UHGV virus genome: UHGV-0069399
Length of the DNA stretch: 49,013 bases
From: a virus
Reading direction: 5' to 3' (one strand)
The notes under the pieces are model-generated. The model did not search any database. It saw only the letters and a program-made list of their open reading frames with translations, and was not told the origin of the DNA. Both the position numbers and the translations under genes were made by a program. This document shows, piece after piece, positions 50-49,013 of the stretch. The stretch's first letter is position 1. Each line of letters begins with the position of its first letter.

Positions 50-721
50 ATGTGTGGACGTTTTTCACAGTCAATGACGCGTGAAGACTATCTAGCCCTT
101 CTCGCTGAAGAAGTCGAACGAGACATTCCATATGGCCCTGAACCGATCGGACGTTTCAACGTTGCGCCCGGAACCAAAGTTCTGCTACTGAGCGAACGTG
201 ATGAGAAACTCCATCTTGATCCAGTTATCTGGGGATACGCCCCCGGGTGGTGGGATAAACCACCACTAATTAATGCACGCTCTGAAACTGCGGCCACCAG
301 CAGAATGTTTAAACCACTCTGGCAGTATGGTCGTGCAATTTGCTTTGCTGATGGATGGTATGAATGGAAAAAGGAAGGTGACAAAAAGCAGCCCTACTTC
401 ATTCATCGAGCCGATGGCCAGCCGATATTCATGGCGGCGATCGGCAGAACACCATTCGAACGTGGAGATGAAGCAGAAGGATTCCTGATAGTGACGGCTG
501 CTGCAGACAAAGGGCTGGTAGATATTCACGACAGGCGGCCGCTGGTTCTGTCACCAGAAGCCGCTCGCGAATGGATGAGGCAGGACATTGGAGGGAAAGA
601 AGCTACGGTAATTGCGGCTGACGGTTCCGTGCCGGCTGATAAATTTTCATGGCATGCTGTAATGCGTGCCGTCGGGAATGTTAAGAATCAAGGACCAGAG
701 TTAATAGAAACTATGCGTTGA
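50..721 (+). CDS. yedK: SOS-response-associated peptidase (SRAP, YedK-like abasic-site processing protein)
   Basis: 223-aa ORF starting MCGRF, with Cys2 directly after the initiator Met (the SRAP nucleophile position); size and WGYAPGWW / PLINARSE motifs fit the family; GC typical of the host. Confidence 0.8.
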   Translation: MCGRFSQSMTREDYLALLAEEVERDIPYGPEPIGRFNVAPGTKVLLLSERDEKLHLDPVIWGYAPGWWDKPPLINARSETAATSRMFKPLWQYGRAICFADGWYEWKKEGDKKQPYFIHRADGQPIFMAAIGRTPFERGDEAEGFLIVTAAADKGLVDIHDRRPLVLSPEAAREWMRQDIGGKEATVIAADGSVPADKFSWHAVMRAVGNVKNQGPELIETMR

Positions 722-999
722 CGTACGAAGCGACAGAGAAAAACATCTGCTTTGAGCGAAAAGTGGCAGTTGAAGACAATCATGAACGATCTATGACTCG
801 ATATTTACTTAATTCACTGTTATTCAAAGGGTTAAGTAAAAAAATATTATCTGTCACCTCAGTGCAATGCAATCTAAGGTTTCAAAGAACCCCCCTTTGA
901 GTACACCGTAAGTTTTAAAATGTGAGGTAAGTTGATTTTACATATTTTCTAATGCATTATCATACGTCCCTTAAAATAAATCATATTACTGAGAAAAAA

Positions 1000-2022
1000 A
1001 TGTCCAACATTAATTTATTCGATGATGTAGTGCCTTTAGAAAAACAACATCCAATATATACAATGATGAAAGAAGAACGCTACAAACCGGAGAGAGATGT
1101 AATTAATCAATGGGCAAAAGGATTTCAAGACCGAGACAATAAATTTGCTAAAGAATTTCAAACAAGTTTTGAACCTTGCCTATGGGAATTATATCTTTTT
1201 GCCTATCTGAAAGAATTAGGCTTAAGGAGCGACTTTTCATACGACGCTCCTGACTTCGTCGTCAATGATCCAGATTTTTGCATTGAGGCAACTATTGCAC
1301 TTCCAGCACAAGGAGACCTTGGGGCGCATGGTTTCAGTAAGGAAGATATGCCGAGAGATTTTAATAAATTTAATTCTGAAGCATCTATTCGACTTAGTAA
1401 TAGCTTTATATCAAAGGTTAAAAAATTAAGATCGAGATATTCTCTACTTCCTCAATGTAAAGAAAAACCTTTTGTAATCGCCATAGCTTCATTCGACAGA
1501 CCTTTTGCACACTTTGCAGCAGCTAGGCCCATACTTGCAACATTATATGGCCTATACCATGATGAAGAAGCAACCATTGAATCAGGGTCAAAGAGTATAA
1601 TTTCTTATAACGTCGATGCTGCAGTAAAAAAAGAAAATGTTAATATAGACATGGGGTTATTCTGCACACCTGAATATTCGGATGTAAGTGCTGTGATTTA
1701 TAGTAGTTTAGCTACTTGGGGAAAAGTAAGAGCCCTTGCGGACAACCCTTCTGCTCTAACGATTTATACATCATTTACTCCAAAGGAAAACTCATTATTT
1801 CCTGAAGTTCATCAAGCCTTAAAAAGTGATTATGTAGAACATCTAGCGGATGGGTTATATATTTTACACAACCCATTTGCCAAGCATCCATTGCCTAAAG
1901 AGACACTAAGTCATCCAAGAATAGCGCAAGGTTATATTGAGCCAGATGGATACGTTAATTTTATAGCGCCAGATGATTTTCTTTTATTGCGTTTTTTACA
2001 ATCGTTAAATTTGAAAGAGTAG
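1000..2022 (+). CDS. hypothetical protein, AT-rich islet gene A (~340 aa)
   Basis: Long ORF in markedly AT-rich DNA. ATG at 1000 (MSNINLFDD) preferred over the ORF-track start at 952, which has no RBS. No family recognised by eye. Confidence 0.6.
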   Translation: MSNINLFDDVVPLEKQHPIYTMMKEERYKPERDVINQWAKGFQDRDNKFAKEFQTSFEPCLWELYLFAYLKELGLRSDFSYDAPDFVVNDPDFCIEATIALPAQGDLGAHGFSKEDMPRDFNKFNSEASIRLSNSFISKVKKLRSRYSLLPQCKEKPFVIAIASFDRPFAHFAAARPILATLYGLYHDEEATIESGSKSIISYNVDAAVKKENVNIDMGLFCTPEYSDVSAVIYSSLATWGKVRALADNPSALTIYTSFTPKENSLFPEVHQALKSDYVEHLADGLYILHNPFAKHPLPKETLSHPRIAQGYIEPDGYVNFIAPDDFLLLRFLQSLNLKE

Positions 2023-2256
2023 TAATTATGGTCACATCTAATTACTTTACATAGATACCCACTAGAAAGGGGACTTTTCTTAAAACTCAGCCGTCAAAGA
2101 TTTAGAGTGGTTATCTACTGGTATGCTTCCGAATCTGCCAGTGCGGCTGAGTGGATTTCTAGTACCCTCTAGAAGATTTAGTTGATTAAAACAGGTCATG
2201 TATCATCTTCAGAGTCAACATATCGCCAACTGTCTATCATTCCATTGAGGAAAAGT

Positions 2257-3030
2257 ATGTCATCAGAAAATTTTGTCACCTTCTGGCTCGCTAGAGCCGA
2301 TCTTCCATACTTTCTTGAACCTCATGAATTTTACGTTTCGGAGGCCAAGCGTAGACTTCTATCGCAGTTTGGCGATTTAGAACAAGAAGCAGAAAGGAGG
2401 GAACAACAGTATTTGGAAGCTACCTCAAAATATTTCGATCCTGATAACGATGATCCAATGGCTGCCTACGAGCAAGCCTACCACGTGGGAATTAATTATG
2501 TATGGTCGCTTCTGGAGATGCAAAATACCGTGTTGTTGGCATTAACGGCAGGAATGTACCACCAGTTTGATAAAAAACTAAGAGAACACACCATCAAAGA
2601 ACTAAGTAACTGGTGCAAAAGAGAATTAATTACTCCCATGATCTGGAATATAACTTTCCATCAGCTTATTGATTTACTCGAATGGATTGGCCTCAAAATC
2701 AATGGAACCGGATACGGAGAGAGGATCAAAGCCTGTAACTTGGTAGTAAACGTATACAAGCATGGGGACGGGCCTGCGCATCAAACACTATCATTCAATC
2801 ATCCTGAGTACTATCAACACCCTACCGATGTTCGAGGTACGCAGAACATACATGACCATGATGATTTACATGTATCAGAAGAGCAATTTGTAGAGTTTGC
2901 TGACGCAATAACTGAATTCTGGAAAGCAGTTCCAGAGAATTGCTATTACTCAGATCTCAAAGAAGAACCCAAATGGTTGAGTAAAGTCGTAACAAAATTC
3001 GATAAAAAACAGAAGGGAAATAGGGACTAA
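2257..3030 (+). CDS. hypothetical protein, AT-rich islet gene B (~257 aa)
   Basis: ORF in AT-rich DNA; ATG at 2257 (MSSENFVTF) is preceded by GAGGAAAA at RBS spacing. No family recognised. Confidence 0.6.
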   Translation: MSSENFVTFWLARADLPYFLEPHEFYVSEAKRRLLSQFGDLEQEAERREQQYLEATSKYFDPDNDDPMAAYEQAYHVGINYVWSLLEMQNTVLLALTAGMYHQFDKKLREHTIKELSNWCKRELITPMIWNITFHQLIDLLEWIGLKINGTGYGERIKACNLVVNVYKHGDGPAHQTLSFNHPEYYQHPTDVRGTQNIHDHDDLHVSEEQFVEFADAITEFWKAVPENCYYSDLKEEPKWLSKVVTKFDKKQKGNRD

Positions 3031-3138
3031 TTACCCATCTCAAAACATCAAGTTTGCAGTGCCCTGCTCCCCGTTTATTAGTATGGAAGTTAACAATGTC
3101 TGCTTCTGACACATAACAGCCCTTAAGATGGTAACTCG

Positions 3139-3188
3139 CCGTCATGGGGTGTCGGGGGTCGGAGGTTCAAATCCTCTCGTGCCGACCA
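3139..3188 (+). other. 3' ~50 nt of a tRNA-Pro-like gene (anticodon arm through T-arm, acceptor 3' strand and ACCA); 5' half absent - integration-junction (att core) remnant
   Basis: GGTCGGAGGTTCAAATCCTCTCGTGCCGACCA is a canonical tRNA T-arm plus acceptor 3' strand plus discriminator A plus CCA, resembling enterobacterial tRNA-Pro. The complementary 5' acceptor strand (CGGCACG) is not present upstream, so this is not an intact gene. Confidence 0.6.
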
Positions 3189-3201
3189 AAAATCCTCGAA
3201 G

Positions 3202-3229
3202 AACCAGCCTGTTACGGCTGGTTTTTTTA
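3202..3229 (+). terminator. rho-independent terminator directly after the tRNA fragment
   Basis: AACCAGCC-tgttac-GGCTGGTT hairpin followed by a run of 7 T. Confidence 0.6.
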
Positions 3230-3318
3230 TGCCTGTTTTCTGAACGGGGAAGCAACGGGGAATAATTGGGGAAAAACCCCGACACAAAACATCGACTTTA
3301 CCGTAAAGTTTCAGCTAT

Positions 3319-3708
3319 TCACATCACTGGGCAGTCATCAAACTCCGCGTTCCTGGCATCATTAATGATGTACGTGATAACACCAAATATTGCGTGTGAA
3401 GAATTATAGCCATCACCGTCTTCTGGCAGCACTTCTCTTCTCCCGTTCTCCAGATTTATCAGGTGGGGCTGAGGGTGAGTTCGGTATCGCTTGATCCTGA
3501 ATTCCCCATCTATCGCGCATATCAGCAGCGAGCCATCACAGGCTGAAAGCGACGCGTCCACAACAAGTAGTGCCCCCTGGATTATCCCTTCCCTGAAATG
3601 TGAACACGATGCCCGCATGAAATAAGTCGCTGCGGGCTGGCTGATTAGCTGTTGATCGAGGGAAATCCTTGTTTCAACGTAATCACTGGCAGGTGAAGGG
3701 AAGCCCAT
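3319..3708 (-). CDS. UmuD'-like protein (LexA/S24-fold, begins at the cleavage-site Gly; catalytic Ser apparently replaced)
   Basis: Translation from ATG 3708 (MGFPSPASDYVE...ATYF...LLVVD...IDGEFRIKR) aligns along its length with E. coli UmuD from Gly25 (GFPSPAADYVEQ...), as recalled from memory. GGAGG RBS 8 nt upstream of this ATG; ATG lies 2 nt after the stop of the upstream small ORF. The ORF-track start at 3807 would overlap that ORF by ~97 nt. Confidence 0.7.
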   Translation of the reverse strand: MGFPSPASDYVETRISLDQQLISQPAATYFMRASCSHFREGIIQGALLVVDASLSACDGSLLICAIDGEFRIKRYRTHPQPHLINLENGRREVLPEDGDGYNSSHAIFGVITYIINDARNAEFDDCPVM

Positions 3709-3710
3709 GG

Positions 3711-3953
3711 CTATAGTCCTCCGTTTGGATTGAAAAGCTGAAAGGTACGGTTCTCCCCTTCCTGCGTTGATACATCGCGGAATGATGTCACATACCACTC
3801 GATCCATTCGTTAGCCTGCTTCATCGTCCAGTTCCAGTTAACCTTGCTCAGTTCCTGGACAAACCGCTGTGTGGTGACGGTCTTCCGGCCATTAGGTTCT
3901 TGCTGTATCGAAGCATGCCAGGCCATTTCAATATCGCTGCGTCGTGGCATCAA
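3711..3953 (-). CDS. hypothetical small protein (80 aa), first gene of the LexA-boxed operon; candidate SOS-induced regulator/antirepressor
   Basis: GAGGGG RBS ~7 nt upstream of ATG 3953; LexA box 40 nt upstream; tightly coupled to the downstream UmuD'-like gene. No family recognised. Confidence 0.5.
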   Translation of the reverse strand: MMPRRSDIEMAWHASIQQEPNGRKTVTTQRFVQELSKVNWNWTMKQANEWIEWYVTSFRDVSTQEGENRTFQLFNPNGGL

Positions 3954-4028: not shown

Positions 4029-4271
4029 ATGTTCGTGGAACTCGTTTATGACAAAAGGAATTTTGATGGGCTGCCTGGTGCAAAAGATATCATTCTGGGC
4101 GAATTGACCAAGAGGGTTCACCGGATCTTCCCCGATGCTGATGTTCGGGTTAAACCGATGATGACACTGCCGGCGATCAACACTGACGCCAGCAAGCATG
4201 AGAAGGAACAGATAAGCCGTACTGTTCAGGAAATGTTTGAAGAAGCTGATATGTGGCTGGTTTCAGATTAA
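4029..4271 (+). CDS. dinI: DinI-like DNA-damage-inducible protein
   Basis: 80 aa; aligns with E. coli DinI, including the acidic C-terminal EEADMWLVSD motif; consensus LexA box 16 bp upstream. Confidence 0.8.
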   Translation: MFVELVYDKRNFDGLPGAKDIILGELTKRVHRIFPDADVRVKPMMTLPAINTDASKHEKEQISRTVQEMFEEADMWLVSD

Positions 4272-4399: not shown

Positions 4400-5956
4400 T
4401 CAATTTTGCTGGCTACCTTTCAGCGTCTCAATCACATTCTTCAGGGAATTGAGTTCAGACATCTGTTCCTTCATCGCTCTGCCCATATAAACCATAGCGC
4501 ATGCCATATCGGCCATAATGACATTATTATCAAGGGCAAGGGTATCGTCTTTGAGACCAACCTCAATCTGATGGTCAACATATTCGTTACCGGACTCATC
4601 CACACCAACAACGTCCTCAAAAACAGGTCCACCAGGCACTATCTTTACGTACTGCGGATCAACTTTAGTCAGATCCTGGGCAATAAGGCCAAAACGCTGT
4701 GTATCCGACCCCTTATACTTAAACATGGTCGGTAACCACTGCATGACACGGTCGAAACTGTCTTTCCCGTCCCGATATTGGATATCTTCTTTTAGATCGC
4801 GGTCTGATGTCGCATTCTTGGCGAACACGTACGATCCCTGCCAGTTTGACCCGGATTCGTTCCATACGTCAGTAGTGATATCACCAGACTGAGGATTGAA
4901 TCTGAACATCCTGTGATATCTGGCATCGCCCATAAAATGTAAGACGCCATGTGGCCAGCCATTGGCACCATTAGAAATGAGTCCCAGTGACAGACGAGTA
5001 CTCCACCCACCCGATGCAGAAGAACCACCAGAAACGATTGGAGCCCAGCCACCATCATTTCCACCAACAATGGCGGACCAGTAAGGGGTGGTCCATGGAC
5101 CATCAACATCCCCCCAGCCACCCGATCCGCACTGTCCCCAGAAACCACGTGGTGATTGTATAACCCCACCATAACCAGAAAGAAAGTTGAAACGGTATGT
5201 GTTCGCTCCTGCTCCAAAACTATTCGCGATTAGAGCAATGGCATCCAGATAATTACCCGCACCTCGTATCCCGCCAAACTGATAGAACGAATTCCCCATC
5301 CACCCCTGCAGCTGGTTCATCATCCAGCCCAGTTCACCATCAACGTTATTCGACGTCAGTAAAATATCCTTCTTGACGCCAGCAGTGCTTTTGACGCCTG
5401 TACCCGACCCACCCGCCACCGAATTGACGCCACGGGTGCCAAGAACACTACCGAACGTAACATCCTGAGAGTTTCCCAAAGTGAGATTATCGCGGGCCGC
5501 ATTTTTATCAGGCAGATCGGCCAGGGCCTGGCTTTTCAACAAAGCATTATTGATCTGATCAATAATGCTTTTCCATGATGGTCCTGTAAACTCCGTATTG
5601 TCAGGAAGCCTGACAGTAATATTGCCGTTCGCAGAGAATAAAAGTTGCCAGTTCTGTTTGTCGTAATTCAGCCCCCGCAGCGCCTCCGTGTTCTGCACCA
5701 CCATTGCGGCAGTAACCATATTCAGCGCCACACGAGGAACAGCTGACCAGGCCGCGCCAGATTGGGTTGGCCCGGTGTAATTGCTGACCAGCGTCAACGC
5801 TGTACCACTTTCCACGGACTTAACCGGAAGCGTATAGGGAACACCACCGACCGTAACAACAATAAAATCTCCGGCCGCCACCTCAGTGGTAAACGCGGTC
5901 CCGCTGCCAGCGACCGCAGCCGAGTTATTCATCAGGGTTAATGTTCCTGCTGACAT
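4400..5956 (-). CDS. side tail fibre protein with C-terminal intramolecular-chaperone (peptidase S74-like) domain
   Basis: 518 aa; Gly/Ser-rich fibre-like central region; C-terminal SDRDLKEDI...FGLIAQDL...DPQYV block typical of autocleaving tail-fibre chaperone domains; position at the distal end of the tail module. Confidence 0.75.
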   Translation of the reverse strand: MSAGTLTLMNNSAAVAGSGTAFTTEVAAGDFIVVTVGGVPYTLPVKSVESGTALTLVSNYTGPTQSGAAWSAVPRVALNMVTAAMVVQNTEALRGLNYDKQNWQLLFSANGNITVRLPDNTEFTGPSWKSIIDQINNALLKSQALADLPDKNAARDNLTLGNSQDVTFGSVLGTRGVNSVAGGSGTGVKSTAGVKKDILLTSNNVDGELGWMMNQLQGWMGNSFYQFGGIRGAGNYLDAIALIANSFGAGANTYRFNFLSGYGGVIQSPRGFWGQCGSGGWGDVDGPWTTPYWSAIVGGNDGGWAPIVSGGSSASGGWSTRLSLGLISNGANGWPHGVLHFMGDARYHRMFRFNPQSGDITTDVWNESGSNWQGSYVFAKNATSDRDLKEDIQYRDGKDSFDRVMQWLPTMFKYKGSDTQRFGLIAQDLTKVDPQYVKIVPGGPVFEDVVGVDESGNEYVDHQIEVGLKDDTLALDNNVIMADMACAMVYMGRAMKEQMSELNSLKNVIETLKGSQQN

Positions 5957-7352: not shown

Positions 7353-10300
7353 CAGAATACCCCTGTTAATTTGCCAATCTGCACGCGGAGAACGCCATTG
7401 CCATCTTTAACGCTGTAATTCAGATTGGTCATTTTCGTTGCCCCCTCCCCGGCAACAGCCCCATTCATTTCAAACGTTCCGTCTGATTTCATAATGGTGC
7501 CTGTTTGTCCCTGAACATAATTAGCGGAGCGCAGTTCGCCAATTTTTGCCAGAGTGATTTGACTATACTGAATAAAAGCATCGCTGATAAACACCTGACC
7601 ATTAATAGAAGCAAACGGAGAATATTGTGTATCACCGCTGCCACTCATCAGGACGAACTGATTGGCGTTAAAGCCGACACGGGTGACTACCGGCTTACCC
7701 GCTTCGGCCAGCACGGCAATCGACATCCCGGCGTTATACATCACACCGTTTATTCGAACTCCGGTTTTAAGAGTGTAAATTGCAGATGCCCCGGTCGCAT
7801 CAACCACGGCGGTGAGCTTATCTTCCAGCGCGGCAGTCACATCATTGAACTGCGCCTGCACCTGCGTCGACATTTCAGCCATGGCTTTATCGACCTGCGC
7901 AATGGTCGTTTTAACCACCAGAATATCCGCGCGTACCTCGCCGTACTGCGCCCACTGGTGTTCCACGGTTGCATGGTTGGCCAGCGCGTTCTGCAATGCG
8001 GCTTCGAGATTGGTATCAATGTCGCCAGTCAGGCGGTCACCGTCGGCAGATGTCAGGAAGTCATCAGCAATATCGCCCAGGTAGTCGTCAGCATTCGCAT
8101 TAGATTCACCACGAACCCAGTCGGTCCAGTCACTCTGATTACCAATGCGATCAACCAGACGAGCCCGGTACCAGAACTCCTGACCTGCCTTCAAACCCAG
8201 TTGGGTATATGTGTGTTGAGGATACGGAACTCCTGCAAGCAGCAGAGGATTATCCCCATTTCCGTTTGCTGAATACTGCAGTTCGGTCTGGAGAGTATCA
8301 CCTGTATCCGCCGGAAAGGACCAGTCAGCCTGTATGCCCCAGTTGATTGCTGTGGTGCGCAGACCAACCGGCTTGGGAACATCCCCAGTACGTCCAGTGA
8401 GATGAGTCAGCACAGAAGAGGTCCACAAACTGGACGCTCCACCAGAGTTAATGGCGCGGACTCTCACGAGGTAATCGCCTGAGAAAATCCCGGCGATCTC
8501 TATATTGCGCAAGCCTGTTTCGGGAATGTTGATCCACTCATTATCACCACGTTTCCACTGTGCCTGATACGCGACAATATCCGCCTGAGGTTTCCCGTTT
8601 TTATCTACTGGCGCATCCCAACTCGCAACCATGGTTGCAATACGCTGCCCCTGCCGGACCGAGTCGTAACTGCTAATCGCGATATTCGTGGGCTGGCTAA
8701 CCAGGCCTATCGGTAACAGACTAATCGGCGGCGTATCCAGCCGGGCGTTGTTATCAACGGCATCGTACTTAGCCCCGTTGTACTCTGCACCGGTGATACT
8801 GTAGGTGTTCTCTTCATCGTTAAATGTCAGATTGGTTACACGGAAATACTGGAGGCGCAACTGGCCTGCATCGATAACAAAAATGGCATTAGGTTGTGGC
8901 TCAGCGGTAAAGGCAGTAGCCAGTATCAGTTGCTGGCCGTTAACCGCCTGAATGGTTCTGCTCTCAACGGTACCGCCCAGGGTACGAATCATCAGCGTAT
9001 CACCCGCCACCGCACTCGTGCCGCGATCGGTAGTTACTGACTTCAACCCTGCATCGTAATCAGTAATACGTCCACCATAGACACGCCCAGACAGCCGCTC
9101 ATCTGCAAACGCAAATACGGTCCCCGGCACATAAGCGAAGCCATCGAGTCCCGTCTGGACAGTGATAATACGGTCCAGAGAATTGGAGTACACTGCCCAA
9201 CCACCCCGGCGCTGAGCTTCGCTTTCACGTGTGCAGCCAATCGCGGTTAGCTGAGTCTGCTTAAACTTGAACTGCTTAACCAGATCGGGAAACATCACTG
9301 CAGTAGTGCGATCCTGATAGTGGTTATCCGGGTCACTAAAGTTAATCAGCGCTGAGCTATAGCGATTCTTTTCACTGCCGCTGGAATAGGTTGGTTTCCC
9401 GACCACAGAGGCACGGGTGAGGATCTGAAGTTTTGACGTATCCGCAGGCATATCAGAGACAACATTGAACATGTTGTTGCCCCAGAAAGTCATTCCGTTG
9501 AAGCCCGCGGCAATATCTTTAATCACCTGCCAGGCATCAGCCTGGGACTGGATGTAAACGTCAAACATGAAGCGTGGCTCGGTAACGCTTCCGCCTTTCC
9601 CGTCGGGTACCTTCTGGTCGCAGCGCTGGGCGATGCGATAGAGCTCCCACTTATCGAGCATTTCTGGCGTCACGCGGCGCCCAAGACCGAAGCGCGGCTC
9701 AGTCACAACATCGAACCAAATCCACGCCGGGTTATTCGTCCAGCCCCATTTAAACGTCCCGTCCCATGTTCCGCTATAAGTCCGCGCTATTGGATCATAG
9801 TTCGAAGGGATTCGGATGATGCGCCCCTTCGGCATGCAGGAAATCTTAGGGATGTTGTTGAATGACTTTGCGTTAAAGGACACGTACAGCAGCGCTGTGT
9901 GTGGATATCGTAGGCGAGCATCGATCACCTCAGTAATCGCTTGCACCTGCGTTTTGTTCTGCAGCATCTGGCTGGTGCTGTCATCGGTGTCACGCACCAC
10001 TCGAATTTGCCAGCCAGTGCTGGCTTTGGGAAGATTAATACGGTGGGTTAGTTCATAGAGCGAACTGAGCTTCTCTGTGACGGTTTTAGTCATGACTGTC
10101 GAGTAAGCGCCACCGTCCACCGCAAGGTCAATATGGTACTGAACCGTGGTGCCGACAATATCCCCATCGTTTTCCTGCTGCTGTAACCCAGGGATGCCAA
10201 TACGAACCAGCACCGCGTCAATCTGGGTGTTACTCAGTGCGCGGGTCCATGGTGTGGCCTTTGTCAGCGATACGCCAACCGTAGTTTCATTCTCGACTGC

Positions 10301-11210: not shown

Positions 11211-11929
11211 GGCTGAATCTCCTGCGGCAAATATTTATGACGAACGCAGATCATCATCCTGTCTTTGAAATAACCTCGCGCATACGGCGTGATGCAGGAT
11301 GGTTGCCCGTACAGATGGTGAAGCAGCTCGCCTTCCTCGGTAATGATCCCCGCGTGGTTCCACTTACTGGATTCAACCTGCATGATGACCATACAGCCTG
11401 GCGACGGGTCGCATTCGACAAACCCCTCCCGTTCCCAGTTATCGAAATAGAGGTTGTCAGGGTACTGGCTTTCCCACCACGGGTATTCAACGCGAAAATC
11501 AGTCAGCATTACACCCTGGGTGGCATGCCAGTCCATGATCAGCCCCCAGCAGTCGTGAGAGCCAAGGATGAACGGGCGTCCTATCAGCGGGATAGCGTCC
11601 GGCGTTAACTCAGCATATTCATCGCAGTCCGGCGCGTAGATGCCCCAGACCACACTGGAGTTATTGCACTGCTGGCGGTCCAAATCGGACGGAATAGGCC
11701 GGGCACCGTCGCCTGGGTGGGAGTGTATGACTCTAATAATGGTTCCTGCGTCCTCGGCATTTGCCCAGTGCTCACCATCAATACGGAAATGCTCAGATGG
11801 GTTTTCATGACTGTTCGGTACCGGAATATATCGCTGACGCCTTCCTGACTGGATGACAAAGCCGCAGCACTCGCGTGGCGATTCCTCCATAGCATGCGCC
11901 CGGATAGCGTTCATTATCGTTTTGTTCAT
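11198..11929 (-). CDS. tail assembly protein K (JAB/MPN plus NlpC/P60-like)
   Basis: N-terminus AIRAHAMEESPRECCGFV and HSHP motif align with lambda gpK. Confidence 0.85.
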   Translation of the reverse strand: MNKTIMNAIRAHAMEESPRECCGFVIQSGRRQRYIPVPNSHENPSEHFRIDGEHWANAEDAGTIIRVIHSHPGDGARPIPSDLDRQQCNNSSVVWGIYAPDCDEYAELTPDAIPLIGRPFILGSHDCWGLIMDWHATQGVMLTDFRVEYPWWESQYPDNLYFDNWEREGFVECDPSPGCMVIMQVESSKWNHAGIITEEGELLHHLYGQPSCITPYARGYFKDRMMICVRHKYLPQEIQPWRA

Positions 11930-11941
11930 ATTGAAGTCCGG

Positions 11942-12715
11942 TTATCGGGAGAAGAGAACAGTTGCCGGGAATCCCCCAAAATCGAGGGTGGCAGTATTGG
12001 GTTCAGCCAGGCCCGCACCAAATCGCTTGCGGCAATCGCTCAGGCAACCACCGCACACGTCCAGCGCAGGGTCAGCGACCACATTCCCCCTCGCATCAAA
12101 ATATGCTGTTCCATTGTAGGTGCAGCCGTCACCGCCGCGGTACTGGCCGCGCAGCGCCCACTCGCACAGCGATGTAATTTGACGGGTGGGAATAACCAGG
12201 TTCTGCAGGTCTGCAGGACTACTCAACGCCCACGTCACCTCTTCATCATCTTCAGAGGTTTTAGTGTCCAGCCAGAAGGTCTGCAGGGAGAACATCGTCG
12301 GGTCTGCTGTCGGATTCACCCCGCCCGGGAAGTTCACCGCATCGAGGTAAACAGCGTAGGTGTCGATAATACTCACCTTTGCATTCACCATATCCTTGAA
12401 CTGGAGGCACAACGCAGTGATATGCCCGTCAAGGTTCGATACGCTCAGCTTCGGTTCTGCGGCCTGGTCGGTTGAAAGTGCGAGGTCAGAAATCTGGAAG
12501 GGCCAGAAGTCGAAGGTTTTGCCATCCCAGATGATGGGCTTTGGTCCAAGCTTAGCTTCATCTCCGTTCGCCGCTTCAATCTCGGCGGGCGTATGGGGAA
12601 ACGGACTGTAGTGAAAGCGGTGAATACCGCCGCTGAACTCTGAAGCATCTACTTCAACCAGCCGGACTCTACCGCCCGGCGCCAGCATTGCAGCTGTATC
12701 AATCAGTGCTGTCAT
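11942..12715 (-). CDS. minor tail protein L
   Basis: 257 aa, between M and K; Cys cluster near the C-terminus as in lambda gpL. Confidence 0.85.
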   Translation of the reverse strand: MTALIDTAAMLAPGGRVRLVEVDASEFSGGIHRFHYSPFPHTPAEIEAANGDEAKLGPKPIIWDGKTFDFWPFQISDLALSTDQAAEPKLSVSNLDGHITALCLQFKDMVNAKVSIIDTYAVYLDAVNFPGGVNPTADPTMFSLQTFWLDTKTSEDDEEVTWALSSPADLQNLVIPTRQITSLCEWALRGQYRGGDGCTYNGTAYFDARGNVVADPALDVCGGCLSDCRKRFGAGLAEPNTATLDFGGFPATVLFSR

Positions 12716-12723
12716 GCTCCACC

Positions 12724-13074
12724 TCAGGCATAGACGCCATAGGCGCGCTTAATCGTGAATGTCAGCTCAGCGAATTTGCTGCTGAGTTGGTTTTTACGCA
12801 CCGAATCGGTCACGACGCGATACAGACCCATCTCCTCGCCCGGCGGCGTGATGACGAATGCTTTAACGGTATGTGCCAGAAGGAAGTCACGAACAGTATT
12901 CACTTCTGAGTCAGCGCCCACATGCTTCATCGGTATCTGAATCGCCGTGGAATTAATGCCGTTCTCAGCCACCTGCTCGTAGCCATCACCAAACTGCGCC
13001 GAGCGCACCGTTTGACTGTATTCGACAGCACCCGCGCCGAGTTGCGAGTGCCAGTTGTAGGTATCAACTGCCAT
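12724..13074 (-). CDS. minor tail protein M
   Basis: 116 aa, immediately upstream of L; lambda gpM size and position. Confidence 0.8.
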   Translation of the reverse strand: MAVDTYNWHSQLGAGAVEYSQTVRSAQFGDGYEQVAENGINSTAIQIPMKHVGADSEVNTVRDFLLAHTVKAFVITPPGEEMGLYRVVTDSVRKNQLSSKFAELTFTIKRAYGVYA

Positions 13075-13267
13075 ATATACTCCATAAAAAAAACCCAGCC
13101 TGAGCTGGGTTAAACATTAGGTTATTGATTAAGCTGATGAAAAATTAACCTGAAATAACATCCTTGAAAAAAGAATTAGTTACTTCACACATATAAAATG
13201 ATGAAATATGCGACACTCCGTCAATATTTTTATCCATCATAGCTAACCAATTCACAGGGATAGTTTA

Positions 13268-14881
13268 ATGAATATTGTGCATTATGCAGCCATTGGAGCT
13301 GTAGCTTTCGTAGTTGTTCTAACAATTTTGGTGATAAACATCATTAAATTAAAGTCAGCCAAGGCTGATGCAGCAGAAAAGGCGGCAAAACTTGAGCGTT
13401 ACGCGTCAATCACCAATGCTGAAACAGAAGCTGAACGAATCGTGAATGCAGCTAAGCAAACCGCAGAAGAGTTAATTATTGATTCGCAGAATAACCTTGA
13501 CGAGGCAAAAGCTGAAGCAGCCAACACTATTGCAGCCAGTGAAAAAGATGCAAGATCTATAACACAGCGTGCGGAGGATATTCTATCAGATGCGCGTTTA
13601 GCAGCTAAGCGAATGAACGCAGAGGCGCTGACCGCTGTAGAAACACAAAGAGTCAAGCGTGCAGAAATTGAAAAACAGATTGATGAATTGCGTAAATCCT
13701 ATCGTGAGAAAAAAATCACTTACGATGAGCTGACGGAAGCCCTGTCAATTTATAAAGATGATATGGAATTTGCTGACATGGGGTTCTATGCACCACACTT
13801 CGATTTTGATACCTCGGCTAGTTTTCAGGATGCGATCAAGGCATGTCGCGAACGGCAAAAAAATCTGCTACGTGACAAAACTGAATTTGGCGCAATACAT
13901 TGCCCTACTGAATGGACGGTTGGCGGCTCTAAAAGTGAAGGTCGGAAAATGACCACTCGCGGCATTCAGATGACAGCACGTGCATTCAATGGTGAGTGTG
14001 ATGCAGCTATTGCAAACTGCACATTTAAAAACGTTTATCAAATGGAGCAAAGAATTTATAAAGCCTTTGATGCCTTGAATAAGATGAATGAGGTTAACCA
14101 GATTTACATCAATCGTGCTTTTTTAGATTTGAAGCTGGATGAACTTCGACTTACACATGAATATCGTTTGAAAAAACAAGAAGAACGAGAAGAACAACGT
14201 GAAATCCGCGCTCAGATGGCTGAGGAGAAGCGAGCTCAAGCCGAAATTGATCGTGCACTTCGAGAGGCTGAAGATGAAGAACGCCGCGCCCAAAAAGCGT
14301 TGGATAAAGCCCGAAAAGAAATGGAATCGAAGCTAGCCCAAATGACAGCTGAGCAAGTTGAGAAACACCAAGCGAAGGTATCCGAATTAGAACATGCCTT
14401 AGAAGAGGCATTGTTGAAAGGCCAAAAAGCTCTTTCTATGGCTCAACAAACTAAACGCGGCCACGTGTACGTTATCTCTAATATTGGTTCGTTTGGTGAT
14501 GATGTTTTTAAAATAGGAATGACACGTCGACTTGACCCTCAAGATCGAGTGGATGAACTGGGTAGTGCATCAGTCCCATTCCTGTTCGATGTTCATGCAA
14601 TGATTTTCAGTGAAGATGCACCAACAATGGAAAACATGCTCCACCAGCGTTTCAATGAGCAACGCACTAACCTAGTTAATAAGCGTAAAGAGTTTTTCAA
14701 TGTAAAATTAAGCGATATCAAAGATGCTGTGTTTGAGATCGCAGGTAAAGATGTAGATTTTATCGAAACAGCAACTGCTCAGCATTATTATGAAACAAAG
14801 GCAATTCGTAAGCAGAAAGCGGATATCATTTCAGTTGTTCCTCAAGAGGAAAAACTACCTAAATTTGCGGACGCAATATAA
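13268..14881 (+). CDS. membrane-anchored coiled-coil protein with DUF4041-like core and C-terminal T5orf172 (MUG113, GIY-YIG-like) domain; inserted accessory gene
   Basis: 537 aa on the opposite strand to the flanking tail genes. N-terminal hydrophobic helix (AAIGAVAFVVVLTILVINII), long charged coiled-coil stretches, C-terminal GHVYVISNIGSFGDDVFKIGMTRRLDPQDRVDELG...FNVKLSDIKDAV matching the T5orf172 signature. Own AT-rich promoter region and terminator. Confidence 0.85.
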   Translation: MNIVHYAAIGAVAFVVVLTILVINIIKLKSAKADAAEKAAKLERYASITNAETEAERIVNAAKQTAEELIIDSQNNLDEAKAEAANTIAASEKDARSITQRAEDILSDARLAAKRMNAEALTAVETQRVKRAEIEKQIDELRKSYREKKITYDELTEALSIYKDDMEFADMGFYAPHFDFDTSASFQDAIKACRERQKNLLRDKTEFGAIHCPTEWTVGGSKSEGRKMTTRGIQMTARAFNGECDAAIANCTFKNVYQMEQRIYKAFDALNKMNEVNQIYINRAFLDLKLDELRLTHEYRLKKQEEREEQREIRAQMAEEKRAQAEIDRALREAEDEERRAQKALDKARKEMESKLAQMTAEQVEKHQAKVSELEHALEEALLKGQKALSMAQQTKRGHVYVISNIGSFGDDVFKIGMTRRLDPQDRVDELGSASVPFLFDVHAMIFSEDAPTMENMLHQRFNEQRTNLVNKRKEFFNVKLSDIKDAVFEIAGKDVDFIETATAQHYYETKAIRKQKADIISVVPQEEKLPKFADAI

Positions 14882-14899
14882 CATTTCAATGACAAATTT

Positions 14900-14926
14900 A
14901 AGGGCGGTTTTTAATCGCCCTTTTAT
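14900..14926. terminator. bidirectional rho-independent terminator between the convergent inserted genes
   Basis: AAGGGCG-gtttttaat-CGCCCTT hairpin with T-rich flank. Confidence 0.6.
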
Positions 14927-14941
14927 GTTAAAAGTCATTAG

Positions 14942-15424
14942 TTACATGTTTTTGTAATAGCCGACTTTAGAATCAAAGTCCTGTTTTGCGAGTGGCGTTT
15001 GGCTTGTCACATAAGTCTCCCAGGAGCTGTACGCCTCTACGAGCGCGCGCTTTTCTTCTGCATCCTTAGTACTCGATTTCATTATTTCAAACACTCCAGA
15101 AGCATTCTCTTTGCGTTTGTTTTTTCTGTTAGCGCCGCAAGTCGCTATTGCATCGGCTACAGAATTATTCCACCCAACCAACTGCAGGATCTCCATTCTC
15201 TTTTGAATCACGAACTGATCCGCAGACGCATTCCGTGCCTGAGTCGACAGGTATTCAGCAAACTCCATTTTGTTCATTGGCACTTTGGAGACTGACTCAA
15301 TATTTACGTCACACTTCGAAAGCTCATCATACTTGGCTTGTTTTTGCGCGTTGTTGACTGGACCATTGCCCGCGCACGCAGAAAGAGCCATTGCTAACAC
15401 CACTGTCGTGAAGACCTTTTTCAT
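14942..15424 (-). CDS. lipoprotein (~160 aa), inserted accessory gene between tape measure and gpM
   Basis: Signal peptide plus lipobox LSAC; start chosen at ATG 15424 (MKKVF...) with GGGGA RBS; AT-rich. Confidence 0.75.
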   Translation of the reverse strand: MKKVFTTVVLAMALSACAGNGPVNNAQKQAKYDELSKCDVNIESVSKVPMNKMEFAEYLSTQARNASADQFVIQKRMEILQLVGWNNSVADAIATCGANRKNKRKENASGVFEIMKSSTKDAEEKRALVEAYSSWETYVTSQTPLAKQDFDSKVGYYKNM

Positions 15425-15524
15425 TATCATCCCCTGATTAGTATGGTTTTGACATAATAACCATGGGAGGCATCGGTGTAACCAGGTACGGGTTATATTG
15501 CCATATCAGAATTTACGACGATGC

Positions 15525-37529: not shown

Positions 37530-37763
37530 CTAATAAAACCAGTCGTCAGCGCTTTCCCAGGTATCCTGGAGGATTGATTCAATTTTCTTTTTATCGTCCT
37601 TGTCACCGCCAAAAACACTTAACCCATCCGACCCGGCACGGCGGATTGTGAGCCTGCAATTGTCATAGTGATCATTCAGGCGCTTAAGCAATTCTTTCTC
37701 CAGTGCAGGAACCGCGCCTTTAGGAAGTTCTTTCATACGATCAATGGTTAATTCAACTTTCAT
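37530..37763 (-). CDS. dinI: DinI-like protein (second copy)
   Basis: From ATG 37763, MKVELTIDRMKELPKGAVPALEKELLKRL...SDGLSVFGGDKDDKKKIESILQDTWESADDWFY aligns with E. coli DinI; GGAGG RBS; LexA box just upstream. Confidence 0.8.
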   Translation of the reverse strand: MKVELTIDRMKELPKGAVPALEKELLKRLNDHYDNCRLTIRRAGSDGLSVFGGDKDDKKKIESILQDTWESADDWFY

Positions 37764-37781
37764 AATGGCCTCCAATGCATA

Positions 37782-37801
37782 TACTGTGTTTTTATACAGT
37801 A
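37782..37801. promoter_or_regulatory. LexA box upstream of the second DinI-like gene
   Basis: TACTGTGTTTTTATACAGTA is a perfect CTGT-N8-ACAG palindrome matching the SOS-box consensus. Confidence 0.75.
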
Positions 37802-37861
37802 TACCTATGAGAGGAAATGATCAACGTTTTAAGAGCACAAATTGTTAATTTCCTGTCAGGA

Positions 37862-37891
37862 ATAAAAAAAGAAAACCCGCCGTAGCGGGTT
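37862..37891 (-). terminator. rho-independent terminator downstream of the 86-aa gene
   Basis: AACCCGC-cgta-GCGGGTT hairpin with a long T-run on the minus strand. Confidence 0.6.
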
Positions 37892-38070
37892 GAATTCGTG
37901 ATGGTTTATAAAGATGTAATTTCTTTCTACTGACAAATCTATGGCTACCCATTTACCCTCAAACGTGAATACAGCATACGCGCCGACATACTGATTATCT
38001 CTTTGTGGATCGGGATATGATCAACCTTCTGCCAGAACGTAAAACTTGATGCCGCTGACAAATAAACAGC

Positions 38071-38331
38071 TCATTGTTTCTTCTCGTTCTGGGCTGCCAT
38101 ATCCAGATAGCGCGGGTCGGATGCTCTCGGTAATGTCAGACTTTGCTCGCGATAGTAGCGCACACGCTCCATGAAGTATTCGCGGAGATGCTCTGGCTGA
38201 TCACGGGCTTCCTGTTCAGCGATAACCGGCATGTTCAGGCGCTCTTTGTCCGCTACTCCGGATGCTGCAAAGTCAACGTTAACCTTGTCCTGCTCTTCTT
38301 TCGGCTTGGCTGCAATGTTATGGTTGGACAT
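38071..38331 (-). CDS. hypothetical protein (86 aa)
   Basis: ORF with terminator downstream; acidic; no family recognised. Confidence 0.5.
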   Translation of the reverse strand: MSNHNIAAKPKEEQDKVNVDFAASGVADKERLNMPVIAEQEARDQPEHLREYFMERVRYYREQSLTLPRASDPRYLDMAAQNEKKQ

Positions 38332-38421
38332 GGTAATCTCACCGGTTAGCTGAGGGAACGATTCTCCTCAACTTGATCATTCAATCTGATTTGTAATCTT
38401 CCGAAATTTGAAATAACATCT

Positions 38422-38826
38422 TTACTTTAATTTATATATTAAACAATCCACAATATCCAAACCATTAACCATACTATTTGAAAGTCGAACTTTGCTATTT
38501 TCAATAGAGAATGCTCCTTTCATCATTTTATAAATAAAAGCAGACTCTCCTTTAGCTTCGATTGCTTCAAGTGGTATGGAATGGTATTTATTTGATCTAT
38601 TATCTCTATTGATTTGACTTATAAGGCTATAAACGAATGTAGGCCCTTTCTCCTCAAGATCACTTATTACCAAAATATATTTCCAAGAAAACATTTCCCC
38701 ATAAAAAAACCACATGGCAGCGGATAAAGCTACTCCTTTCTTCTCTAACTCTTTCATTAGAAATTGGCCAGAATTTTCCATAGAGGTCGTCATTGAGTGA
38801 CCTATTACCAGTGACTTCTTACCCAT
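38422..38826 (-). CDS. hypothetical protein (134 aa), downstream partner of the HEPN-like gene; possible degenerate minimal nucleotidyltransferase
   Basis: Very AT-rich; start overlaps the HEPN-like gene's 3' end by ~22 nt; contains a G-E-x11-S-D-L-E stretch loosely resembling the MNT G[SG]-x9-13-DxD motif. Confidence 0.6.
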   Translation of the reverse strand: MGKKSLVIGHSMTTSMENSGQFLMKELEKKGVALSAAMWFFYGEMFSWKYILVISDLEEKGPTFVYSLISQINRDNRSNKYHSIPLEAIEAKGESAFIYKMMKGAFSIENSKVRLSNSMVNGLDIVDCLIYKLK

Positions 38827-39227
38827 TGCAAAACTCCAGATTGATTATTCTCAGCTGCTTCGATGAGCTGCTCCGCCATAGCCCGACTGATAGTAGTTTC
38901 GTAGCGGAGTTGTTCACTCCAATCCTTCATAACAGTCCAAAATATTTCAAACTGCCCATCCTGGGCAGCTAATTGTCTATGTGATAGTTGTAGGCTCGCC
39001 ACCTGCATGAGCTTTGTTAGATCATGAACATGTGAGTCCATGGCTAACTTCTTGTCAGGAAATTGAAATGCCGTCACATTTTTTGCTATACATGCTTTAA
39101 GAGCGCACTCAACTGCGTATCCGCAGAGGTAGTATGCACCATGATATAATCCATTCTGTAACAGACATTTTGCTTCCGTTAACCTTATACCAGTTAAAAC
39201 TTCTAGGTCAGATTTATTCATTTGCAA
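38805..39227 (-). CDS. HEPN-like domain protein (140 aa)
   Basis: GAYYLCGYAVECALKACIAK ... HDLTKL ... RYETT pattern resembles HEPN-superfamily helices; AT-rich; first gene of an overlapping pair. Confidence 0.6.
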   Translation of the reverse strand: MQMNKSDLEVLTGIRLTEAKCLLQNGLYHGAYYLCGYAVECALKACIAKNVTAFQFPDKKLAMDSHVHDLTKLMQVASLQLSHRQLAAQDGQFEIFWTVMKDWSEQLRYETTISRAMAEQLIEAAENNQSGVLQWVRSHW

Positions 39228-39339
39228 ATATTCTAATTTTCTTTCATAGGCACATGGTACTCATTGAGTGTAATTCTTTCCAACAAATTATCAGATATAT
39301 ACGATAAAAGGTCGCTTGATCAATTTTCGGAGCTAGGAG

Positions 39340-39792
39340 CTAAATGATGTGAAGGCGCGGCTCCCCGTTTTTCGGCTCAGGCCACTGACGCTGCTTATTC
39401 ACCGCCAACTTTTCTACCATCGCCTGGTTAATCTGCTCGTCACTGATACCGGCACGACGTTGCGCATCCCATAACAGGAATTGCATGTCAGCCCATTCGC
39501 TAAGGTCGCCTGGTTCAGCAGCAGCCTCGAGTGCTTCTTTGGAAAGGTGCTTCAGCGGACCAACTGGACCGACATCGCCGAAAGTAGCCAGTGACCACGC
39601 TGCATGTTCACGGCGTACTTGTTCGCGGGCCATCGACTCCAGAACCCCATTAAACACCTTCACAGCATCAGCCATTGCGTAGCCGAGATTGCCGCCGTCG
39701 CTTTGTGCTGCTGCTTTGCTGAGTATTTCTCTTATCTGGTGCAGGCGATTGAGTGATACAGGACCGTTCGCCGGGTGGTTGTTAGTGGTCAT
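39340..39792 (-). CDS. MazG-like/DUF550-type nucleotide pyrophosphohydrolase (putative)
   Basis: Start chosen at MTTNNHP; HLSKEALEAAAEPGDLSEWADMQFLLWDAQRRAGIS resembles prophage dATP/dGTP pyrophosphohydrolase-like proteins. Moderate confidence. Confidence 0.5.
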   Translation of the reverse strand: MTTNNHPANGPVSLNRLHQIREILSKAAAQSDGGNLGYAMADAVKVFNGVLESMAREQVRREHAAWSLATFGDVGPVGPLKHLSKEALEAAAEPGDLSEWADMQFLLWDAQRRAGISDEQINQAMVEKLAVNKQRQWPEPKNGEPRLHII

Positions 39793-40100
39793 ACTGATGC
39801 TCTCCCGTAAAATGCCAGAACCCGCTTCATCGCCGGACTTGTACGGCATACTGAAGTAACCATGTTTTTTCTCATGTTCGATTTGATCTGCTTGATATTC
39901 AGTTCCCCGCCTAGTTGCAGCGAATAGACCGGGTGATGTGGCTCCCCAGCGCGAATAACTACTGCCCTACGTACCAGGTGAAGCAGCAGGTTGTGTGCTT
40001 TCTTGCAGTCGCATCCCAGCAGGTTCTGAACCTGACGCGGGGTTATGGTCTGGTTAACCCGAAGGAAATCGACAATTGCCCACAGTGATTTGCTTGCCAT
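39789..40100 (-). CDS. hypothetical small protein (103 aa), probably DNA-binding
   Basis: Basic small ORF between the DnaC-like and MazG-like genes, same operon. Confidence 0.45.
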   Translation of the reverse strand: MASKSLWAIVDFLRVNQTITPRQVQNLLGCDCKKAHNLLLHLVRRAVVIRAGEPHHPVYSLQLGGELNIKQIKSNMRKNMVTSVCRTSPAMKRVLAFYGRASV

Positions 40101-48374: not shown

Positions 48375-48575
48375 ATGGATGATATTTTGCTGACGTCAGA
48401 CCTGACCAGTCGATACAAAATCTCACGTAAAACCCTTTGGTCATGGCAAAGCACAGACACGATGCCGCGGGGTTTTGCGAAGCCGTTCCCCGCCCCGGAC
48501 TTCCCCGGTAACCCTAACCGCTGGAAGTCGGAGTCAGTCAAAGAGTGGGAAGGTGTGAAACAGCCAATTAACTGA
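48375..48575 (+). CDS. xis: excisionase / AlpA-family small DNA-binding protein
   Basis: 66 aa; ISRKTLWSW...MPRGFAKP resembles AlpA/Xis-type winged-helix proteins; adjacent to the integrase. Confidence 0.7.
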
Positions 48576-49013
48576 ACGGCTCACCGATGATGTTTTCAAG
48601 ATGGCTCTGCCAAACGTGGAGCCAGTGTTTTTGATCATCGATGTAGTCATGCAGGTTATAGTGCGCCATCACGCCAACCATTTGGTGACCAAGTAACTTT
48701 TCAATCACATGCGGCGGACAGCCAAGTTCTGAAAGATTTGTTGCGATTGTTCTTCTCATATCATGGAGAGACCAGGGCTCCATGCCGGATTCTGACCAAA
48801 TATACCTGGCGTAGTTCGAAGCAACTGGCGGATGAACCGGGACGTCTTTAATTTCCCCATCCAATAAGCGCTGTGAAGTGACTAAATGCTTTGTGTTGAT
48901 CTTCTCAAGATGATTTTTTACCAGTCCCACCGCAGCATCAGAAAGAGCCCTTCTCATGTGCACTCGCGTTTTGTAACTTCCAGCAGGAACTATCCATTCA
49001 TTTTCATCCAGCT
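48568..49013 (-). CDS. int: tyrosine integrase, P4-type (C-terminal catalytic part; gene continues beyond the window edge)
   Basis: HDMRRTIAT ... LLGH ... AHYNLHDY box II and catalytic Tyr region; the reading frame stays open to position 49013, where upstream residues read ...[13 protein letters not shown] like the P4-family VPL region. Confidence 0.85.

Follow-up and report, generated by a model that had tools for sequence, protein, structure and literature searches.

In 2002 Williams reportedly classified the attP sites of those temperate phages whose integration target is the 3' part of a tRNA gene. Two described types of attachment site come closest to the locus studied here, namely the proL, tRNA-Pro(GGG), site of the coliphages Eeyore and Flotzy, and the site at the 3' end of yciI used by phi80, HK225 and mEp237 (phi80-type, or att80). 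The proL gene has also been listed among the prophage sites of Shiga toxin-producing E. coli (STEC) O121 (PMC8767318). In this work, we analysed the viral genome UHGV-0069399, a stretch of 49,013 nucleotides (the window, meaning the whole stretch of DNA analysed), and examined a tRNA-Pro-like fragment followed by a terminator, which is located close to its left end. The window lies inside a single Citrobacter prophage that is inserted at the phi80-type site, and the fragment belongs to the proL type. It is probably, at about 0.8 by our own estimate, a fossil half of a proL-type attP, left when an att80-type integration module replaced the original one.

The fragment and its immediate surroundings form a short module composed of the following parts.

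3083 to 3138, plus strand: conserved left border of the module, common to UTI89 and many viral contigs with differing upstream genes.
3139 to 3188, plus strand: core, an exact copy of proL nt 28-77, the block common to attB, attP, attL and attR of proL-integrating phages.
3198 to 3228, plus strand: terminator hairpin, with the stem 3198-3209/3216-3227, the GC-rich part CCAGCC/GGCTGG and a run of seven T at 3222-3228.
3246 to 3284, plus strand: phage-side (P') arm with three GGGGAA repeats starting at 3246, 3257 and 3268 (11-bp phasing), after which the conserved module ends.

The core, CCGTCATGGGGTGTCGGGGGTCGGAGGTTCAAATCCTCTCGTGCCGACCA, is identical to proL of E. coli K-12 at 50 of 50 positions, the identity beginning with the first anticodon-stem base and ending with CCA (3186-3188). 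The initial annotation, made from the sequence alone, had described here the last ~50 nt of a tRNA-Pro gene with its terminator, and the coordinates it gave are accurate. The proM (UGG) gene, first considered as the source of the fragment, was rejected: its anticodon region is mismatched. The fragment is no functional tRNA-Pro gene. Indeed, ARAGORN found no tRNA gene in the window, Rfam at gathering thresholds gave no match for the fragment region, a relaxed Rfam scan reached 15 bits for tRNA at the fragment against a threshold of 29 bits, and the minimum-free-energy fold of this stretch contains no cloverleaf. The 5' half was initially considered to be absent, which holds for a working 5' half immediately upstream of 3139 but not for its decayed trace. 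In a gapped alignment, the 34 nt preceding the core (3105-3138) correspond to a decayed proL 5' half with a 7-nt insertion in the D-loop; an ungapped local test of the same region had revealed nothing. In three relatives (L031, L045 and L087), the same upstream stretch aligns with proL nt 1-27 (shuffle p 0.001-0.007). The remnant of the window has the same layout, though taken alone it is not significant (p 0.17).

The terminator hairpin has a folding energy of -17.5 kcal/mol (z = -5.07) and none of 200 shuffled sequences was as stable. Homology links it to the native proL terminator, the stem showing one compensatory change (CCAGCC/GGCTGG versus CCAACC/GGTTGG in K-12), and this stem is nearly invariant across 67 distinct copies of the module. 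When covariation was sought in it, the phage copies proved almost invariant, the compensatory difference from native proL being the only one. On the minus strand, window 3190-3284 also gave an Rfam match to STnc50, a Salmonella sRNA family, at 22.5 bits (threshold 55, E 0.26), probably by chance and driven by the hairpin.

The fragment, its terminator and ~55 nt beyond recur in phage genomes. The free phages Eeyore and Flotzy carry the module directly after the integrase gene and ahead of the UmuD-like, DinI and tail-fibre genes, that is, in the attP position. The four junctions of this proL-integrating phage type were compared base by base.

attB, E. coli K-12: lapC - proL - native terminator - yejO.
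attP, phage Eeyore: int - P side - core - phage arm.
attL, contigs L057, L042 and L067: lapC - intact proL - phage arm.
attR, E. coli CX21: Eeyore-type int - P side - core - native terminator - yejO - narP.

This complete set bears out the earlier proposal that the fragment derives from site-specific integration into a tRNA gene. The Eeyore attP shares with proL a block of 46 nt (proL nt 32-77), starting at the anticodon stem-loop. The same comparison contradicts the proposal that the fragment closes an element lying on its left. The 100 nt following the core in the window agree at 98 positions with the arm that L042 has next to its intact proL, but at only 55 with the native DNA downstream of proL, and L042 is 96.9% identical to window 3129-3934. 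In the genuine attR of CX21, unlike in the window, the core is followed by the native flank. Furthermore, the GGGGAA repeats, which are predicted protein-binding sites, are kept in phage copies and missing from the native proL downstream DNA. The identities to the two flanks show that the window copy consists of the core with the P' arm; by its sequence it is an attL/attP-type half-site and no attR-type scar. An Eeyore-type or lambda-type int was found nowhere in the whole 50-kb element, and the left flank of the fragment is cargo. Since the cognate integrase and the P arm are not adjacent, we classify the fragment as a relic and not as a working attP. In three other contigs (L056, L084 and L086), an additional ~1.4 kb with three small open reading frames (ORFs) lies between the att core and an integrase 99% identical to that of Eeyore; the spacer between int and att therefore also takes cargo.

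The window was extended in both directions through identical proteins in public contigs. On the left it is preceded by trpA ... ompW, yciC, yciB, yciA, tonB and yciI, and on the right the cut integrase gene is followed by a small ORF and then cls, the host of the prophage being Citrobacter. The elements of the resident integration system are as follows.

48568 to 49013, minus strand: 3' portion of the resident int gene, which runs past the end of the window; full gene in L006 at 11577-12770, with Arm-DNA-bind_3 and Phage_integrase domains.
105-121 nt left of window position 1 (L005 8929-8945): attL, ccGTACAAAAAGGTTTTTTgaattt, at the yciI 3' end.
Window-equivalent 49947-49963 (L006 12956-12972): attR, gacaATACAAAAAAGTATTTTaaaaac, on the cls side, upstream of cls.
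Empty site: attB, ccGTACAAAAAAGTATTTTaaaaac.

The resident integrase (Int) shares 84% amino acid identity with Int of HK225 and has no significant similarity to Int of Eeyore. The block recE-recT-DUF4060-xis-int(-), in which xis adjoins int, is 78% identical at the DNA level to those of HK225 and mEp237, whose records annotate a 17-bp phi80-type attP core. The mismatch between the fragment and the resident integrase, pointed out in the initial annotation, is thus real, this Int being of the phi80/HK225 type and using a non-tRNA site. The orientation is the one found in E. coli lysogens, where yciI borders the P' arm and the opposite flank borders the int side, and the attachment position agrees with PMC11148124. 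The true att repeats of the prophage, flanking the insertion at the yciI 3' end and on the cls side, therefore lie outside the window, and the prophage does not begin beyond the fragment as had been supposed.

The empty site predicted from these junctions was found in six metagenome contigs. Contig L097 represents a same-species empty site with flanks 99% identical, in which yciI is joined directly to the cls side, without the SRAP peptidase gene that opens the prophage, the AT-rich islet that follows it, phage, int or tRNA. Comparison of attB, attL and attR places the crossover in TACAAAAA, and the attL bases supplied by the phage introduce synonymous changes, so that YciI still ends in PYKKVF*. 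The insertion amounts to 50,084 bp. Tblastn with four integrases and an invertase matched the resident int only, so no second recombinase was detected. Since the same-species empty site joins yciI to the cls side, SRAP, islet, fragment and phage are one insertion bounded by phi80-type att repeats; since the att sites lie outside the window and the recombinase is single, the whole window is inside one prophage. The view of the initial annotation, in which two mobile elements meet at a tRNA hotspot and one of them contains the islet, consequently does not stand: the islet is cargo inside the prophage and has no integrase. No tRNA gene was found within 10 kb to the left of the window or beyond the integrase. 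No second copy of the core, which would have refuted the initial annotation, lies beside the integrase, and none was found in the element with up to 5 mismatches allowed per 25-mer. The reason is the use of another, non-tRNA site by the integrase and not an abutment of two elements. Likewise, the orientation of the fragment does not fit the prophage because of mosaicism, an att80-type integration module being joined to an arm with a proL-type att. The excised or virion junction of the resident prophage would read int - ...gacaATACAAAAAGGTTTTTTgaattt... - SRAP.

Two other candidates for the attachment site were rejected. The 12-mer TAGGTACACATT, present in the yciI-SRAP spacer and at the int start, was discarded as an att core: this spacer is kept in three further Citrobacter species, and the attP predicted from this 12-mer (chance expectation ~0.2) had no match in viral contigs. 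For integration at the SRAP 3' end, where species diverge, no repeat was found, and the divergence marks the left edge of the cargo slot. The yciI site is occupied in other species too. In Citrobacter amalonaticus (L014 1942-4636), two att80-like cores flank a 2.7-kb prophage remnant that has no integrase and contains a truncated SRAP gene, a DinI gene and three small ORFs, and in C. youngae (L013) the same site holds SRAP, an unknown ORF, umuC, umuD, dinI and a tail fibre gene. Occupation of this site is therefore common in the genus Citrobacter.

The genes on both sides of the module are the following.

50 to 721, plus strand: SRAP (YedK-like) peptidase gene (Pfam SRAP, E 2e-50; NCBIfam PRK09951), the first gene inside the prophage left end.
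772 to 3082, plus strand: AT-rich cargo slot (GC 37.6%, against ~51-56%), with PD-T7-5 and an unknown ORF.
952 to 2022, plus strand: PD-T7-5, a predicted defence gene (PADLOC E 3.9e-102, profile positions 1-340 of 346).
2182 to 3030, plus strand: orf282, 282 aa (257 aa as called in public contigs), downstream of PD-T7-5.
3319 to 3807, minus strand: humD, encoding a UmuD-like S24 peptidase (NCBIfam HumD, E 1.5e-66), the first gene of the arm travelling with the module.
4029 to 4271, plus strand: DinI-family gene of the conserved arm (Pfam DinI; weak NCBIfam match).
4400 to 5956, minus strand: tail fibre gene with a Peptidase_S74 chaperone domain, adjoined by GpJ-like tail genes; the structural arm starts here.

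In window-like relatives, homology ends at ~759-771 and returns at ~3083-3107, with 0.6-3 kb of other genes in between; the AT-rich islet is therefore the content of a variable cargo slot. No recombinase domain was found in SRAP, PD-T7-5 or orf282. Searches of Pfam, PADLOC and NCBIfam gave no family for orf282, which may act together with the defence gene or be cargo in its own right. In viral contigs SRAP behaves as phage cargo and occurs on either side of the module. Only the last ~37 nt upstream of SRAP are common to other phages, and the preceding 115 nt, counted from the att80 core, are specific to this att type. A 28-aa DinI fragment is present just upstream of SRAP in some window-like relatives (L087, L074 and L106, ~1186-1273), which hints that the SRAP-cargo segment was itself spliced beside an older DinI-bearing arm. 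On the other side of the module, humD occupies the same position in Eeyore, Flotzy and most viral contigs, and the DinI protein of the arm is 94-100% identical at the amino acid level in many module-bearing contigs. SRAP, PD-T7-5 and orf282 all point to the module terminator and converge on humD, which suggests that their transcription probably stops at this terminator.

Scanning viral contigs with a search pattern of 25 fixed bases revealed at least 80 module loci in enterobacterial prophages. Among the 80 loci listed, five are complete tRNA-Pro(GGG) genes joined to the arm, and so true attL sites, and 75 are fragments. These fragments mostly border cargo genes at their 5' edge, including those for GtgE, AbiTii, DUF4236, PDC-S39, HEC-08 and an HNH/PtuB-like protein, and many unrelated sequences are found to the left of the module. 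Identity with proL mostly ends 45-55 nt from the 3' end, with a second group at 29-35 nt. The ORF closest to the module on its upstream side reads in the same direction in 55 of 69 loci, and its stop codon often lies 46-57 nt before CCA. The 67 distinct copies vary in the spacers and show conservation in the T-arm, the terminator stem and the phased repeats, with the reservation that 25 of these bases were fixed by the pattern. In E. coli, module sites include an e14-like prophage at icd, a P2-like prophage next to yodB and an ssrA-linked remnant in UTI89. In Salmonella prophage Gifsy-2, the module lies between gtgE and sseI (L007, NC_010393 44207-44334) and carries no annotation in the phage record. 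Its tRNA part has decayed to 37/50, gtgE ends 80-87 nt before the module CCA and a truncated SRAP gene follows, both in Gifsy-2 and in Gifsy-2-like contigs (L021, L043, L049, L064, L066, L069 and L073). The copy in L106 is also decaying, with two 1-nt deletions. In L023, L068 and L093, two direct copies of the module bracket a 1.2-kb cargo gene; those of L023 are at 7451-7620 and 8675-8813, and the bracketed ORF encodes 261 aa of unknown function. Such tandem copies are the pattern expected of cassette insertion or of unequal exchange at the module. Our literature search found no description of a pseudo-tRNA-Pro in Gifsy-2 or other prophages, nor of one as the border of a cargo slot. This wider pattern may be worth a census.

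The fossil half-site reading assembles these observations as follows. The ancestral lineage would be temperate phages entering proL, with the crossover in the 46-nt block shared by attB and attP. The half-site would have travelled, together with the HumD-DinI-tail-fibre arm, into the mosaic Citrobacter prophage, and the integration module would have been swapped by recombination between a proL-type and an att80-type phage. SRAP, PD-T7-5 and orf282 would then stand in a replaceable slot where the proL-type integrase sits in Eeyore-like phages. The resident integrase would make no use of the tRNA-like site, and the module would today do no more than terminate transcription of the rightward cargo genes and mark the inner end of the cargo slot. 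All these components are of known kinds: tRNA-derived attP sites, phi80-type integration, mosaic prophages and prophage hotspots for cargo and defence genes.

Several points weigh against this reading. The tRNA part has kept its full identity, and both terminator and repeats remain well conserved even far from proL-type integrases, whereas a pure fossil should decay, as it did in Gifsy-2 and L106. Recent acquisition would explain the intactness of the window copy, and a continuing function might do so as well. A search for a working attP with a window-type left border beside an integrase gave only relic-type contexts, so that the L042 attL is the one source from which the direct ancestor is deduced. 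The role of the terminator, a weak point, is a prediction, and a simple terminator scanner did not flag the hairpin, though folding detects it. As for the order of events, the join could have arisen either by plain phage-phage recombination or by capture of an attL followed by decay of the 5' half.

This last route, in which imprecise excision from proL would have taken the whole gene together with host DNA upstream of it, followed by decay of the 5' half and later replacement of the upstream DNA by cargo and an att80-type integration module, is unlikely in our view. Imprecise excision is a classical route for the capture of att-adjacent genes, as in the gal and bio transducing phages of lambda. 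Indeed, the decayed 5' half with the same 7-nt insertion is significant in the three relatives mentioned above and not in the Eeyore attP (p 0.19). However, neither lapC nor any other DNA from upstream of proL remains to the left of the module, lapC being found only in true attL contigs. Moreover, the degenerate tRNA-like stretch may simply be longer in a working attP of this lineage, and a perfect 3' part next to a rotted 5' part is also what long evolution as a working attP predicts. The model of the initial annotation, in which the fragment is an attR-type scar closing the islet on its left, with the prophage inserted beyond and two elements abutting at a tRNA-Pro hotspot, has become very improbable. 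It was a natural reading, since tRNA 3' fragments are typical end-scars of integrated elements, the fragment reads toward the prophage and the islet is compositionally foreign. Nevertheless, the DNA downstream of the fragment is the P' arm where the real attR of CX21 has the native flank, the neighbours on the left are yciI and tonB with no tRNA gene in the 10 kb examined, the islet has no integrase, no second core copy exists, and the empty site contains neither tRNA nor SRAP.

Two further explanations assign a present function to the module. It may be kept as an RNA element, the 3' untranslated region (UTR) and terminator of moron transcripts, whose T-arm/acceptor hairpin would act in processing or stabilisation. 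The prevailing co-orientation of the upstream ORF and the strong terminator are consistent with this, as is the high expression in lysogens of gtgE, located directly upstream of the Gifsy-2 copy (PMC7067206). We nevertheless regard it as rather improbable: no RNA family matches, almost no covariation exists among the phage copies, and the GGGGAA repeats, lying past the terminator, are left unexplained. A somewhat smaller chance is given to the idea that the module is still active, its half-att being used in trans by proL-type integrases of co-resident phages or serving as an anchor for homologous recombination, with both cargo cassettes and phage arms changing hands at this point. The narrow range in which unrelated left flanks meet the core, the close spacing between cargo stop codons and CCA, the double copies around a cargo gene and the conservation of the T-arm, terminator stem and 11-bp-phased repeats between variable spacers would all fit an active site. 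But most copies have no P arm or cognate integrase nearby, so that canonical Int-dependent recombination is not expected; the conservation may reflect repeated re-derivation from working attP sites together with ascertainment by the 25 fixed bases, and tandem copies can come from unequal homologous recombination between phages. The broader form of this idea, that the ~200-bp module would be a shared docking or exchange site of enterobacterial prophages of various types, at which defence and virulence cassettes (PD-T7-5, AbiTii, PDC-S39, GtgE and others) are inserted or swapped in trans by proL-type integrases, as on a somewhat integron-like platform, seems to us equally small in likelihood.

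Two other regions of the window contain accessory genes apart from the module. A second AT-rich insert (13075-15524, GC 41.6%) interrupts the tail gene block, and an early-region cluster of small accessory genes on the minus strand (37530-39849) was seen in the precomputed Pfam table.

13268 to 14881, plus strand: PD-Lambda-1 defence gene (PADLOC E 5e-201; DUF4041 and T5orf172 domains).
14942 to 15430, minus strand: unknown ORF of 162 aa in the second insert.
37530 to 37775, minus strand: second DinI gene.
38071 to 38331, minus strand: DNA polymerase III theta-like gene.
38805 to 39227, minus strand: HEPN-domain gene (weak match).
39340 to 39849, minus strand: dATP/dGTP pyrophosphohydrolase-like gene.

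The map of this region is thus corrected to one 50-kb att80-type prophage with ends just outside the window, in place of two abutting elements. Pipelines that treat tRNA fragments as island edges would misplace the edge of the prophage by ~3.3 kb and split off its defence cargo. Many prophages of Salmonella, E. coli and Citrobacter have the module at the inner edge of a cargo slot, as at the Gifsy-2 gtgE locus, which makes the module a practical landmark for phage-borne defence and virulence genes. Under the fossil half-site reading, it would also be a visible footprint of the swapping of integration modules. Were it an active exchange site instead, it would provide a mechanism for cargo turnover in lambdoid prophages.

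Compared with the proL coliphages Eeyore and Flotzy, the window has the same block of identity from the anticodon stem to CCA, by which the tRNA gene is rebuilt on integration, the same phage-supplied terminator and arm, and the same UmuD-like/HumD, DinI and tail fibre genes after it. It differs from them in that its site has neither cognate integrase nor P arm, is located 3.26 kb inside a prophage integrated elsewhere, and is bordered by cargo on the left. With phi80, HK225 and mEp237 the prophage shares the close similarity of Int (to HK225), the order recE-recT-DUF4060-xis-int(-)-att and the integration at the yciI 3' end in the same orientation. The core itself is different, the attB of Citrobacter being GTACAAAAAAGTATTTT and that of E. 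coli ATTTAAGAAAGTGTTCT, despite integrases that are 84% identical. The partner flank differs as well, being cls in Citrobacter because kch is lacking here, and on the P' side SRAP and the defence slot take the place of an invertase.

The attR-type tRNA fragments of genomic and tandem islands likewise consist of a 3' tRNA piece without a working 5' half. However, such scars come with native downstream DNA and an intact tRNA gene at the far end, neither of which is present at the window. Finally, the hotspots of P2 and P4 (PMC9122126), the b region of lambda and the gtgE/sseI end of Gifsy-2 all have, as the window does, variable defence or virulence genes between conserved phage sequences near the att-proximal end. 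The slot holds PD-T7-5 in the window and GtgE, AbiTii, PDC-S39 or HEC-08 elsewhere. What distinguishes the slot described here is its inner border, a pseudo-tRNA att relic, which is found in both siphovirus-like and myovirus-like prophages with differing integration sites.

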